A DNA stretch of 56,987 nt from a virus (lineage: Duplodnaviria > Caudoviricetes). The notes under the pieces are model-generated. The model had not been told where the DNA came from. It made no database searches and was given only the letters and a program-made list of their open reading frames with translations. The position numbers and the translations under genes were made by a program. The stretch is taken from positions 1-56,987 of the IMG/VR virus record IMGVR_UViG_3300021964_000079. One strand, given 5' to 3'. The stretch's first letter is position 1; every line of letters starts with the position of its first letter. Below are positions 8,800 through 33,278 of this stretch, in pieces.

Positions 8800-8965
8800 G
8801 GTAGAGAGAGGGGGAATCGAACCCCCTGTTAGGTAGTGTGAGCTACCTTGATATTGTCTCACAAACGATCCTGGCTTCATCCATCCCACTGTCAGCTTCA
8901 GAGCTCTAGCGCTCTTCAGTAGTCAGTCCAACAGGATATATATCATTCACTCGTCCAGACTCTCC
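8800..8965 (-). ncRNA. tRNA-like structured RNA with an enlarged anticodon arm (candidate)
   Basis: Acceptor GGAGAG/CTCTCT + ACC, perfect T-arm GGGGG-TTCGATT-CCCCC, variable-arm hairpin AGGTAG/CTACCT, nested stems TGATAT/ATATCA, ATCCTG/CAGGAT, CTACTG/CAGTGG, GAGC/GCTC; no ORF. Confidence 0.6.
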
Positions 8966-28809: not shown

Positions 28810-29181
28810 TTAGAACTTATATTCAGTCTTAACACCGACAATTTTATCGGCGGTTTCAAAATCATTATTGAAATTGACTTCACCATAAGGTGTAATACCA
28901 AAGGATTCATTCACATCAAATGTATATCCACCCCAAAACTCAACATTAGAAATTTCACTGTCGTCCCAGCTAAACGATGGTTTAACTGACAGATCAAATC
29001 CCTTAATTCCAGCAACCACACCAAATTTTGTAGAGGTTGTTTCCTGAGTTACATTACGCTCAGTATCAGTCACAAAGGACATGTCAATTTTAGGTAGAAC
29101 AGATGAAACTTTCTTCTCTTCTGCCATAGCAACACTTGAAATACAAGTTGCTAGTGCAACTCCGATCATTAGTTTCTTCAT
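28810..29181 (-). CDS. Small secreted/outer-membrane beta-barrel-like protein
   Basis: Signal peptide (AMA/EE), alternating beta-strands, C-terminal YKF. Confidence 0.6.
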   Translation of the reverse strand: MKKLMIGVALATCISSVAMAEEKKVSSVLPKIDMSFVTDTERNVTQETTSTKFGVVAGIKGFDLSVKPSFSWDDSEISNVEFWGGYTFDVNESFGITPYGEVNFNNDFETADKIVGVKTEYKF

Positions 29182-29547: not shown

Positions 29548-29588
29548 AGTATAATTCATCCTTTCAAGATGATAAGTTAGACAATATT

Positions 29589-29637
29589 TGTCAGACACAA
29601 AGTGTTTCGTTTGAATTTCACAAACTCATCAGTGACA
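29589..29637 (-). ncRNA. Type I hammerhead ribozyme
   Basis: UGUCA-CUGAUGA-GUUUG(UGAAAUU)CAAAC-GAA-ACAC(UUU)GUGU-C^UGACA: complete core and three stems. Confidence 0.9.
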
Positions 29638-29647
29638 TTATATACAG

Positions 29648-29676
29648 AGTATAACAGGTTATTATATATTTGTCAA
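29648..29676 (-). promoter_or_regulatory. Sigma70-like promoter upstream of the hammerhead
   Basis: TTGACA-17 nt-TATACT. Confidence 0.7.
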
Positions 29677-29691
29677 TACTCTTTTTGAATA

Positions 29692-29863
29692 AAGTGGTGG
29701 GTATTCTGTTGCAAGGAACCCACCGAACCCCGAAAGATTATGCTGCTAGAGCGTAATCTCCATAGTTTGCATTATCGTTTGCATTTAGAAATTTGACCAA
29801 TAACGCAGTCATCCGACAATTCTCCACTCATCTATTCCAGCCTGTCGATCCTATTTCGCCCCC
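29692..29863 (-). ncRNA. ssrA: tmRNA coding piece (permuted two-piece ssrA); tag ANDNANYGDYALAA at 29782-29738
   Basis: 5' GGGGGCGAAATAGGATCGAC; resume codon context TAAAT-GCA; tag ends in ALAA; 3' GGTGGGT..GCAACAGAA.ACCCACC motif; 3' boundary approximate. Confidence 0.92.
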
Positions 29864-29864
29864 A

Positions 29865-29999
29865 TCAAAAAGAGATTTTACCATAACCAAGTAACAAGGC
29901 TATGATACCAGAAATGAGAATAATATCAGCGCATACACTCCAAAGAATATATAACTTAAACATAAATACCGATATTTTTTTTACTAGAGGATTCTTCAT
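29865..29999 (-). CDS. 44-aa single-TM protein inside the tmRNA intervening segment
   Basis: AGGAG 6 nt before ATG; MKNPLVKKISVFMFKLYILWSVCADIILISGIIALLLGYGKISF; stop 1 nt before tmRNA G1. Confidence 0.6.
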   Translation of the reverse strand: MKNPLVKKISVFMFKLYILWSVCADIILISGIIALLLGYGKISF

Positions 30000-30040
30000 C
30001 TGAATCTCCTGATATCATCTCTTTCATGACAATCTCCTTT

Positions 30041-30104
30041 TGGTGGAGGCGGGGGGTATCGCACCCCCGTCCAGTTCTGTATTCAATTCGTATCATCAAA
30101 TTGT
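30041..30104 (-). ncRNA. ssrA: tmRNA acceptor piece (3' half of the tRNA-like domain with CCA)
   Basis: GGACGGGGGTGCGATACCCCCCGCCTCCACCA; CGCCTCC pairs with GGGGGCG giving G3-U70 and A73; 5' boundary approximate. Confidence 0.9.
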
Positions 30105-30110
30105 ATCTTA

Positions 30111-30139
30111 TATATAACACACGGGGATTAATAAGTCAA
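30111..30139 (-). promoter_or_regulatory. Sigma70-like promoter for tmRNA
   Basis: TTGACT-17 nt-TATATA. Confidence 0.55.
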
Positions 30140-30523
30140 GTGCTTTATTGGCATTCCTTTAATTTTTTTTGGTAATGAAAGTAAAGTTCCACCCACTCCC
30201 TGACTTAAAATACACGCCCACTTACCCTGTATTTCTAATACTGTGGCTGTACCCGTGGTTTCATTTATATAGGACATGACAACACTTTTCTGTTCTGCAT
30301 CTACCCAAGCGGAAATTGATTCTTCACCAAACTCTTTGACCTTATCCATAACTTCCTTTACAGGACCGCATAACACAGGTTTCTGTGTTACAATCCAATT
30401 TGGAAATTCTTTTAAATCTTGTGGTTCTGGAATTGTTTCTTGCGCTAAGGTTTGGCTACCCATTAACAGAAACACTGCCAGTACTGCTACTAGAGGTTTC
30501 ATTCTGTTTGCTCCATTCTGCAA
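30128..30523 (-). CDS. Secreted hypothetical protein (start probably MKPLV)
   Basis: Signal-peptide-like N-terminus, KPVLCG...ACIL. Confidence 0.6.
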   Translation of the reverse strand: MQNGANRMKPLVAVLAVFLLMGSQTLAQETIPEPQDLKEFPNWIVTQKPVLCGPVKEVMDKVKEFGEESISAWVDAEQKSVVMSYINETTGTATVLEIQGKWACILSQGVGGTLLSLPKKIKGMPIKHLTY

Positions 30524-32248: not shown

Positions 32249-32838
32249 TATTCTCCAAACTCATAATTATACATTTCGATGTCTTTCTCATACCACTGAT
32301 GAACTTTCATTATATCTGCATCATCATAGTATTCCCAATAAGGTTTATGGTCTGTCTTGTTATAATGCTTATAATTTTGGGCCCAATCGACACATATTTT
32401 TGGAAACAAATATTTAACTTCTTCATCATAATTCTCAAACCGTGCTATGTAATCTACATCAGTTAGATAATCACATTGAGGTGTGTTATGATCATGAATT
32501 AGTCCGTCTTTTCTTAAATTCATATTTAACCATTCTTTAAAAGAAATATCTTCTGGGGGTTTAAATTTTCCCCCATTGTAAAAATAATTTGATAATTCTC
32601 TATCCCAAGGATTTCTTACAAAACCAAATTTGAAATACTCATCCCATTCCAAACCTAATTTTGGAAATACACCTTCTTTTATCCAAGAAGATTCAACATG
32701 AAAAGTTGCTTGTCCATCTCGAATTCTTTGTATAACTTTAGCACCAGAATCATGATGCAACATTTGTTTAAATATAGTCGTTCCACCAGTTTTCTGCACT
32801 TTAATAAAGAGATATTTTTTAGTCGATAATATCGTCAT
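32248..32838 (-). CDS. Sulfotransferase (Sulfotransfer_2 family)
   Basis: FIKVQKTGGTT (5'-PSB), FVRNPWDRELSNY (3'-PB), RFEN, Y..DIE...YEF. Confidence 0.85.
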   Translation of the reverse strand: MTILSTKKYLFIKVQKTGGTTIFKQMLHHDSGAKVIQRIRDGQATFHVESSWIKEGVFPKLGLEWDEYFKFGFVRNPWDRELSNYFYNGGKFKPPEDISFKEWLNMNLRKDGLIHDHNTPQCDYLTDVDYIARFENYDEEVKYLFPKICVDWAQNYKHYNKTDHKPYWEYYDDADIMKVHQWYEKDIEMYNYEFGE

Positions 32839-33278
32839 GCCAAAGCACGAATCCTGTCAACTAGTCTATTTGCTCGATTGGTGACCTGACGATACCACGC
32901 CGAGTCAACCATCTCATCTGCGGCGGCATTCCAATCACGGGAATCCACACCACGTTTCATACCCTTGAATCTACTCAGGCGAGGTCGGCCCATATTGAAC
33001 ATCATGTTAGCAATCACTTGCTGAGCTTCTTCTGGCAGATCGTCAAAGTCTTCGTAAAGGATGTGGCAGTCTCGCAAGACGTTTTCGCAATCCTGTTCGA
33101 AGGCCTCAATGACTCTGGACTCACTGACGGGAGCGCCGATGGGATCACCGTATTCGGGGTCAGACTCAAGGACCAAATGGCCGACGCCAAAAGTAGCATA
33201 ACCAAGATGGTCATTATATACCTCATATTTAACTCCCTCGTCGATTTCGAGTTGTTCTCTAAATTGTTCTAAATTCAT
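32835..33278 (-). CDS. T4-type lysozyme (GH24) endolysin
   Basis: DEG...Y.D.LGY.T.GVGH, NM.FNMG, AA.EM.DS.W..Q...RA.RL. Confidence 0.9.
   Translation of the reverse strand: MNLEQFREQLEIDEGVKYEVYNDHLGYATFGVGHLVLESDPEYGDPIGAPVSESRVIEAFEQDCENVLRDCHILYEDFDDLPEEAQQVIANMMFNMGRPRLSRFKGMKRGVDSRDWNAAADEMVDSAWYRQVTNRANRLVDRIRALA

Follow-up and report, generated by a model that had tools for sequence, protein, structure and literature searches.

Few RNA genes are catalogued better than those of transfer-messenger RNA (tmRNA), and in their permuted form the intervening segment (IVS) is regarded as a short throw-away spacer. How a protein gene can come to occupy such a spacer, and from which RNA it may be read, is the question raised by the ssrA gene on the minus strand of the Caudoviricetes record IMGVR_UViG_3300021964_000079 (the window, that is the whole stretch of 56,987 bases analysed here, with a completeness estimate of 36%). 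Its IVS is 177 nt long and contains an open reading frame of 44 codons (ORF2) and an overlapping upstream frame of 23 codons (ORF1). An original prediction, made from the letters of the window, described the IVS as a self-contained, stem-closed mini-gene cassette which couples a toxin- or holin-like peptide to tmRNA maturation. The observations presented below point to another reading, to which we assign a probability of about 0.8: the IVS of phage two-piece tmRNAs would be a tolerant harbour for small genes expressed from the tmRNA precursor (pre-tmRNA).

A peptide gene in the intervening segment

ARAGORN identified a permuted tmRNA (tmRNA*) at 29647-30133(-) with the tag ANDNANYGDYALAA, followed by a stop codon. 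The Rfam models tmRNA_permuted (RF04321, 116.9 bits, cut-off 47) and alpha_tmRNA (RF01849, 115.1 bits, cut-off 50) both matched the locus, and both alignments left an unaligned insertion between ...CCUCCACCA and GGGGGCGAAAUAGG. The acceptor piece ends with CGCCUCCACCA at 30041 and the coding piece starts with GGGGGCGAAAUAGG at 29863, the nucleotide referred to as G1. In the acceptor stem, GGGGGCG pairs with CGCCUCC with a G:U in position 3 (alanine charging), and the tag ends in ALAA before its stop. By the order of its pieces, the covariance scores, the G3:U pair and the tag, the ssrA gene of the window is a permuted two-piece gene of the alpha type.

The 44-codon frame of the original prediction was found within the insertion, led by GGAG 6 nt ahead of its ATG and closed by a UGA 1 nt from G1. 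A 20-base motif of the coding piece gave at least 120 viral stretches and, among the matches listed, a homologous peptide was encoded in several viral IVSs of 159, 177, 183 or 192 nt; the 177-nt form recurs in many relatives. A profile built from ten peptides gave 443 pattern matches in viral contigs, 285 of which were confirmed by tblastn, and 164 protein clusters at E<=0.01 out of 182 candidates, all of them unnamed or labelled 'hypothetical protein'. Homologues as distant as 44% identity maintained the ORF2 frame. In 49 unique sequences, compared over their first 36 codons, the ratio of nonsynonymous to synonymous polymorphism (pN/pS) was 0.29 in frame as compared to 1.03 and 1.52 in the other two frames, the median ratio of nonsynonymous to synonymous substitution rates (dN/dS) was 0.14, and 23, 15 and 31 of the 36 sites varied at codon positions 1, 2 and 3, respectively. 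When the IVS copies were taken alone (41 unique sequences), the corresponding pN/pS values were 0.29 in frame and 1.04 and 1.53 out of frame. The ORF foreseen from the window alone is thereby matched by conservation in its own frame only.

The best 80 loci had G1 positioned 1 nt past the stop in 67 cases, while 12 copies were free-standing and one was cut by the contig end. Upstream of the peptide gene, a CCA end was present in 62 of these 67 loci; the upstream DNA was missing in three and no CCACCA match was found in two. In a set of 89 loci with the peptide gene, all IVS copies (n = 76) stopped at TGA and all copies outside any IVS (n = 13) stopped at TAA or TAG. Because of the conservation, the in-frame selection and the free-standing copies with other stop codons, ORF2 is, as judged from sequence comparison, a genuine, conserved and portable protein gene. 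In L184 and L187 the peptide gene lies directly 5′ of the acceptor piece with no promoter in between, and would therefore still be carried on the pre-tmRNA. In L161 (655-1000), a free-standing peptide gene is followed immediately by a second small ORF with hydrophobic stretches and its own Shine-Dalgarno (SD) sequence, and then by the tmRNA gene.

In the predicted peptide of 38-44 residues, a basic N-terminus is combined with a single hydrophobic span, and the core W-S-x-C/F-A-D is conserved, with Phe in place of the Cys in L143-L146. The maximum Kyte-Doolittle value in a 19-residue window was 2.43 at residues 18-36, which fits one membrane span and agrees with the single-pass peptide first proposed. 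The 44-residue form has only seven residues after the span (GYGKISF) and the 38-residue form stops at the span, leaving a C-terminus of 0-7 residues with at most one charge.

Attempts to assign a function to ORF2 by homology gave nothing: there were no families at E<=0.01 in Pfam, none in PHROGs, and no family in the ESM Atlas, where the nearest clusters were unnamed, and tblastn found no copy in 50,697 deposited phage records. The description as toxin- or holin-like was not borne out. A type I toxin of the Hok/Gef kind found no support in the Pfam, PHROG and Atlas results. A holin or pinholin identity was likewise unsupported, with the charged hydrophilic C-terminal domain missing and the position lying outside a lysis cassette beside the endolysin. 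The peptide gene sits between the exonuclease gene and the gene in the gp33 position, and the Phage_lysozyme gene at 32838-33278 is 2.8 kb away, with sulfotransferase, kinase-like, cytidylyltransferase-like and exonuclease genes as well as ORFs without family match in the interval. An early-expressed modulator located in the inner membrane is our guess at the role of the peptide, held with low confidence.

Small genes in other intervening segments

The content of the IVS was compared between phages and cells in a census of 105 unique viral IVSs, taken from the motif-defined sample among the matches listed, and in a cellular control retrieved with the same 20-mer from one genome per species (120 loci from Alphaproteobacteria, 103 of them with an identified CCA end). 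An IVS of at least 90 nt was found in 51 of the 105 viral cases versus 2 of the 103 cellular ones. The cellular IVSs had a median length of 34 nt, and 101 of 103 were at most 71 nt long and ORF-free; the two longest, of 116 and 174 nt, contained no convincing ORF. The premise that the IVS of permuted tmRNAs is normally short and non-coding thus holds for cellular genes of this tmRNA type in the control.

The longest sense ORF with an ATG start covered at least half of the IVS in 38 of the 51 long viral IVSs, as compared to 9 of 51 on the antisense strand and 8.2 of 51 in dinucleotide shuffles. Together with the second ORF of L016 and that of the phage Melnitz, the 38 ORFs gave 40 peptides which formed 18 clusters; five of these clusters had two or more members. 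One of these peptide families, family B (35 residues), had a pN/pS of 0.22 in frame versus 1.15 and 1.46 in the other frames. The 38 ORFs also differed in where they stop: 16 used the UGA of the four-base leader ahead of G1, 11 stopped 7-16 nt before G1, and 11 ran through G1 to a UAG in GAAAUAGG. In these last 11, cleavage by RNase P would leave a message without a stop codon.

The IVS of L131-L133, of about 565 nt, contained an ORF of 196 amino acids which matched PHROG endonuclease (8.8e-20), endonuclease VII (1.4e-15) and HNH (2.3e-13) families and no Pfam family at E<=0.01. In L131 1400-2450, as in L132 and L133, this endonuclease-like ORF runs through G1 into the coding piece. The ssrA promoter is duplicated in the same three loci, and the membrane-peptide gene lies between the two copies, upstream of the acceptor piece. 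This looks like a rearrangement linked to the invasion by a mobile nuclease gene.

Among cultured phages, Melnitz has an IVS of 142 nt with a 54-codon ORF of a third family, common to L042, L082 and L016. The Melnitz record has no coding sequence (CDS) annotated inside the tmRNA, and its locus tags jump from 86 to 89.

An unannotated permuted tmRNA was noticed in the Pelagibacter phage HTVC008M (L323 1321-1662, KC465899.1 ~145120-145461) with the tag ANFNEYALAA and an RF04321 score of 90.6 bits. Two annotated hypothetical CDSs overlap it, one with its end and the other with its start, and the IVS of just 49 nt holds no ORF of note. The Rhodobacter phage RcXuper (L324 1006-1428, OP186293.1) likewise contains an unannotated permuted tmRNA, with the tag ANENFAPMEMRLAA and 108 bits to RF04321. 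Its IVS is 109 nt long and GC-rich, and a 25-codon frame running through G1 is a candidate coding sequence only.

By these sequence comparisons, the long, gene-filled IVS is general in phages and phage-specific relative to the alphaproteobacterial control. In marine T4-type phages the spacer is routinely expanded, and conserved small protein genes from many unrelated families occupy it; within these very compact genomes it acts like a safe place for new genes to settle. Since gene callers and curators drop CDSs which overlap RNA genes, a class of abundant small proteins of ocean viruses would be hidden; the gap in annotation is illustrated by Melnitz, without a CDS at this place, and by HTVC008M and RcXuper, without an annotated tmRNA.

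Helix, precursor and competing explanations

The first 10 nt of the window IVS, AAAGGAGAUU, pair with AAUCUCUUUU in a helix of 10 bp with one G-U. The original prediction had this helix right and its end slightly wrong: the 3′ arm is followed by the four bases UGAU, and the end of the IVS itself is not the arm. A survey of 80 unique viral IVSs of at least 30 nt, included regardless of content, showed that IVS positions 2-10 pair with their mirror positions, counted before the last four bases, in 84-99% of the cases. Four to six pair types occurred at each helix position, and partners slid by 1-2 positions paired far less, so that the stem is supported by the covariation proposed as a check on it. 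The same helix, of about 8 bp, was present in 97 cellular alphaproteobacterial IVSs. TGAT formed the end of the IVS in 71 of the 105 unique viral sequences and in 39 of 102 unique cellular ones and, since it is common to both, the UGAU is a feature of the tmRNA gene that ORF2 uses. In the predicted minimum free energy fold of the precursor, the acceptor stem and the IVS helix formed one rod with a single mismatch.

The free-standing copies allowed the helix to be separated from the peptide gene. The median duplex energy was −19.0 kcal/mol in IVS copies (z −5.5, n = 33) and −6.5 kcal/mol in free-standing copies (z −0.44, n = 9), and the 5′-3′ fold-back which hides the SD sequence was strong only within tmRNA genes, the free-standing copies being at the level of shuffles. 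The final 13 nt of ORF2, made up of the arm and the stop, were invariant in 17 unique 44-codon IVS copies, and several of these 13 positions varied in five free-standing 44-codon copies. Because the pairing is lost in free-standing copies, it is a property of the tmRNA gene rather than of the message. Changes in free-standing copies which at first looked compensatory had suggested a fold-back of the hok/mok kind intrinsic to the cassette, and this was abandoned on the duplex energies of the free-standing copies, which were no better than those of shuffles. The stem is accordingly not part of a self-contained cassette as first claimed. On present sequences it is a generic pre-tmRNA helix, viral and cellular, with or without an ORF, and helix and UGAU leader alike are parts of the tmRNA gene into which the peptide gene has been fitted.

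The second frame of the original prediction, ORF1, exists, is led by AAGGAG located in the 5′ arm of the helix and overlaps ORF2, but selection at the protein level was not found for it. An ATG-started upstream ORF in the ORF1 frame which overlaps ORF2 was present in 45 of 58 unique contexts, in 31 of them at exactly −28, and was absent in 13; some free-standing copies also have one. The pN/pS of the ORF1 frame over the overlap with ORF2 was 1.04, and its unique first nine codons vary freely. On these grounds ORF1 was rejected as a selected peptide; probably it is none, and if it matters at all, then through the act of its translation. Eight A in a row lie at 29971-29978(-) within the overlap, where slippage between the frames is possible. 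A −1 frameshift from ORF1 to ORF2 on this run was considered and rejected, as the run is missing in the examined free-standing copies of the 38-39-residue form.

The features of the locus are collected in Table 1.

Table 1. Features of the ssrA locus in the window, all given in window coordinates.
Feature	Position	Strand	Details
ssrA promoter, sigma-70-type (early-type)	30111..30139	-	TTGACT 30139-30134, 17-nt spacer, TATATA 30116-30111 after TGT
Acceptor piece: T-arm, 3′ acceptor strand CGCCUCC, ACCA end at 30041	30041..30104	-	RF04321 model position 1 at 30104; ARAGORN
IVS, 177 nt, absent from mature tmRNA by the permuted-gene model	29864..30040	-	Rfam unaligned insertion
Helix 5′ arm, AAAGGAGAUU, holds the ORF1 SD AAGGAG	30031..30040	-	
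ORF1, 23 codons, upstream, overlaps the ORF2 start	29956..30027	-	AAGGAG-led; probably not a selected peptide
ORF2, 44 codons, predicted single-pass membrane peptide MKNPLVKKISVFMFKLYILWSVCADIILISGIIALLLGYGKISF	29865..29999	-	GGAG at 30009-30006; stop UGA 29867-29865
Helix 3′ arm, AAUCUCUUUU, also codes the final ORF2 residues (K)ISF	29868..29877	-	
UGAU leader ahead of the RNase P site; its UGA is the ORF2 stop	29864..29867	-	
tmRNA coding piece	29693..29863	-	G1 29863; tag frame 29782-29738; hairpin 29724-29696, then U-rich run
Next promoter, TTGACA-17-TATACT, bounds the ssrA unit	29648..29676	-	11/12; serves the downstream winged-helix/gp33-position gene

Gene content and gene order of the window fit T4-type marine myophages. 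The exonuclease shared 63% identity with its counterpart in Methylophilales phage Melnitz and 56.5% with the one in Pelagibacter phage HTVC008M, and matches to the gp59 helicase loader, ThyX and phage lysozyme were found among the genes near ssrA. By these matches the window phage is a T4-type marine myophage like Melnitz and HTVC008M. Two ORFs flanking ssrA, 28810-29181(-) and 30128-30523(-), of 123 and 131 residues, have hydrophobic N-termini resembling signal peptides and had no match in Pfam or PHROG. Curli-pore genes are placed downstream of ssrA in the available part of the Melnitz paper. Elsewhere in the window, at 8800-8890(-), ARAGORN called a tRNA-His of 91 nt with the anticodon at position 29, which stayed below the gathering score of the Rfam tRNA model and may be an odd or false tRNA.

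The transcription of the locus was examined from its signals. Of 143 unique related upstream regions, 93 contained a TTGACN-N16-18-TANNNH element at a distance of 96-105 nt from the CCA end, most often 99 nt; the one in the window was not listed by the consensus scan because position 6 of its −10 hexamer is A. No terminator was seen between the acceptor and coding pieces in the window, where the IVS starts with the helix arm directly after CCA, and the 3′ hairpin of the coding piece closes the unit shortly before the next strong promoter. An internal promoter or terminator of note between the pieces was not found in the window. With no promoter of its own, a conserved promoter upstream and no terminator in between, the mRNA of ORF2 would be the pre-tmRNA. 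In libraries recorded as RNA, the G1 junction is spanned by contigs of X2, X5 and X6, which come from three studies, and the CCA junction by contigs of X1 and X2, both from one study; this is compatible with such a precursor. A 171-nt contig in X2 (record 12), covering 29867-30037, nearly equals the IVS, and it is not readable as the excised RNA because contigs break at flanks shared between strains. Zero cover in the bins 30126-30173 and 29574-29621 in all four runs was considered as a sign of transcript ends and was dismissed as no evidence of them.

The harbour reading may be depicted as follows: The IVS would have been colonised by the gene of an inner-membrane peptide of 38-44 residues, with the pre-tmRNA, made from the conserved early-type promoter, as its message. 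The IVS helix would prolong the acceptor stem and present the RNase P site and the CCA end, and the peptide gene would be fitted to it, with the SD of the leader ORF in the 5′ arm, the last four codons in the 3′ arm and the stop in UGAU. In the accepted model, as given in the available text of a review on tmRNA, RNase P and a 3′ enzyme cleave the permuted precursor. Given the geometry of the IVS, maturation, with RNase P acting at G1 and the 3′ end trimmed back to CCA, would thus cut the message out of the precursor, with its stop 1 nt from the new 3′ end. The message could be translated as part of the precursor, after excision, or in both states. In this strongly transcribed place many unrelated small genes would have settled, in one case an endonuclease-like one. 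As the coding IVS is part of the pre-tmRNA, one precursor RNA would be both an mRNA and the precursor of tmRNA. Co-transcription, excision, early timing and the membrane location of the ORF2 peptide are the parts of this account which we infer.

Several observations weigh against it. ORF2 is known from its sequence and its translation is predicted; it has no family match which would give it a function, nor a copy among the deposited phage records. Among the long viral IVSs, 13 of 51 are without an ORF covering half of their length. A weak promoter-like site, CTGATA-16-TATCAT at 29929-29902, lies inside ORF2 and is the sole match in the window IVS (9/12). The RNA evidence consists of contigs, and carry-over of DNA in those libraries is possible. 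The excision of a long phage IVS is carried over from the model of cellular two-piece tmRNA. Finally, 11 of the 13 free-standing copies are still within about 1 kb of a tmRNA gene; this nearness could be a functional tie which the harbour reading ignores, or only local rearrangement.

The coupling at the centre of the original prediction has the peptide as a membrane-damaging or lysis-timing one, switched when maturation releases or destroys a stem-closed mini-mRNA. The peptide is indeed small, hydrophobic and single-span, pairing in the closing helix hides the SD of ORF1, the ORF2 stop lies 1 nt from the RNase P site, cleavage would remove the stop in the 11 of 38 ORFs that run through G1, and most free-standing copies stay near a tmRNA gene, those of L184 and L187 directly before the acceptor piece. 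The coupling is nevertheless unlikely in our view. No toxin or holin family was matched in Pfam, PHROGs or the Atlas, the C-terminus past the span is too short and too poor in charge for the holins considered above, the locus lies between the exonuclease and gp33-position genes at a distance from the lysozyme gene, the promoter is of early type, and the helix is generic and lost in free-standing copies. Moreover, the same place in the gene has been taken up by 18 unrelated ORF clusters and by an endonuclease-like gene, which speaks for a permissive site rather than a dedicated switch. If instead the acceptor piece, the peptide gene and the coding piece were separate transcription units, ORF2 would be an ordinary intergenic gene. 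The promoter-like match inside the window IVS and a TTGACT-17-TATAAA inside the IVS of L131, ahead of the endonuclease-like ORF, speak for this, but there is no terminator between the pieces, the helix arm follows CCA directly, G1 requires a 5′ leader for RNase P anyway, and the RNA-library contigs bridge both junctions. The conserved, covarying helix that joins both ends of the IVS makes sense only on one RNA, and we regard separate units as quite improbable. Still harder to credit is that ORF2 is not a gene and stays open through constraint on RNA structure or by chance in AT-rich sequence. The fold of the window IVS surpasses those of shuffled versions (z −3.05; 2 of 200 equally good) and an ORF filling this share of the IVS arose in 3 of 100 dinucleotide shuffles; against this stand the concentration of substitutions at third codon positions, the low pN/pS in one frame only, the frame kept in distant homologues and the free-standing copies outside any tmRNA with other stop codons.

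A further possibility, about as doubtful as the toxin or holin coupling, is that the IVS genes form a processing-gated, self-referential circuit in which the peptide is completed only on unprocessed pre-tmRNA. After the cut at G1, the message would end 1 nt past the stop in the family of the window (the leader UGA in 16 of 38) and would have lost its stop in 11 of 38; ribosomes on the excised piece would become substrates of the tmRNA just matured, with the product tagged for degradation, and maturation would be blocked by ribosomes that move through the helix while translating the precursor. If so, the output of peptide would report the balance of translation load, RNase P activity and trans-translation capacity, and phages would have plugged diverse small effectors into this sensor. 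Three observations speak for more than a harbour and keep such a circuit in view: the nearness of 11 of the 13 free-standing copies to a tmRNA gene, the place of the peptide gene in L184 and L187, and the stop geometry of the IVS ORFs, by which processing changes the way translation can end. A stop at or beyond the RNase P site and an SD in the processing helix force an interplay between translation, RNase P and trans-translation. This interplay is testable in a cultured system, Melnitz on the OM43 strain H5P1.

Comparison with known systems

A search of the full-text literature found no description of ORFs in the tmRNA IVS, in agreement with the statement in the original prediction that none was known, though an earlier remark in the founding papers on two-piece tmRNA is possible. 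In the available text of the 2025 tmRNA database paper, the only oddities of the IVS named are a tRNA-Ala gene and a repetitive element, and neither 'ORF' nor 'open reading' occurs. The phage tmRNAs listed in the text at hand of 'Ends of the line for tmRNA-SmpB' are those of mycobacteriophage and Bacillus phage G only.

The permuted tmRNA of alphaproteobacteria shares with the window the order of acceptor piece, IVS and coding piece, the G3:U pair, the ALAA tag, the closing helix and the UGAU leader. It differs in its IVS, which is short (median 34 nt) and ORF-free, whereas the window IVS of 177 nt is coding. The nearest cultured relative, Melnitz (MZ577097), shares with the window the gene order exonuclease, small genes, permuted ssrA, late-transcription coactivator and gp59-type loader, and resembles it also in its long IVS with an ORF, although of another family. 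In Melnitz, unlike the window, a glutamine riboswitch (RF01739, 52.8 bits) follows right after ssrA (L001 1688-1736); the corresponding part of the window (29640-29740) gave no match to it at the gathering score. The available part of the Melnitz paper describes the two-piece ssrA and the glutamine riboswitch, and the word 'intervening' never occurs in it.

Protein genes inside a removed part of a tmRNA precursor have a parallel in the homing-endonuclease genes of group I introns. According to the 2025 database paper, in the part available, such genes occur only in T-loop introns (23 of 844 founding intron forms). These introns are self-splicing, lie in the T-loop and carry a gene which serves intron mobility, whereas the segment considered here is the IVS, which end-processing enzymes would remove, and its cargo consists mostly of small non-nuclease peptides, with an endonuclease-like gene only in L131-L133.

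In type I toxin messages of the hok/mok/sok kind, a small hydrophobic peptide is encoded together with an overlapping upstream ORF. The window has both, but ORF2 gave no Hok/Gef match in Pfam and an ATG-started upstream ORF is not a constant part of its contexts. Dual-function RNAs such as SgrS/SgrT, RNAIII/hld and SR1/SR1P combine a structured RNA and the frame of a small peptide on one transcript. In these, both functions reside in the same mature molecule, whereas here they would be split by processing and the coding part is thought to be discarded. The arrangement found in the window is thus a variant of two known themes, genes located in excised RNA segments and dual-function transcripts.

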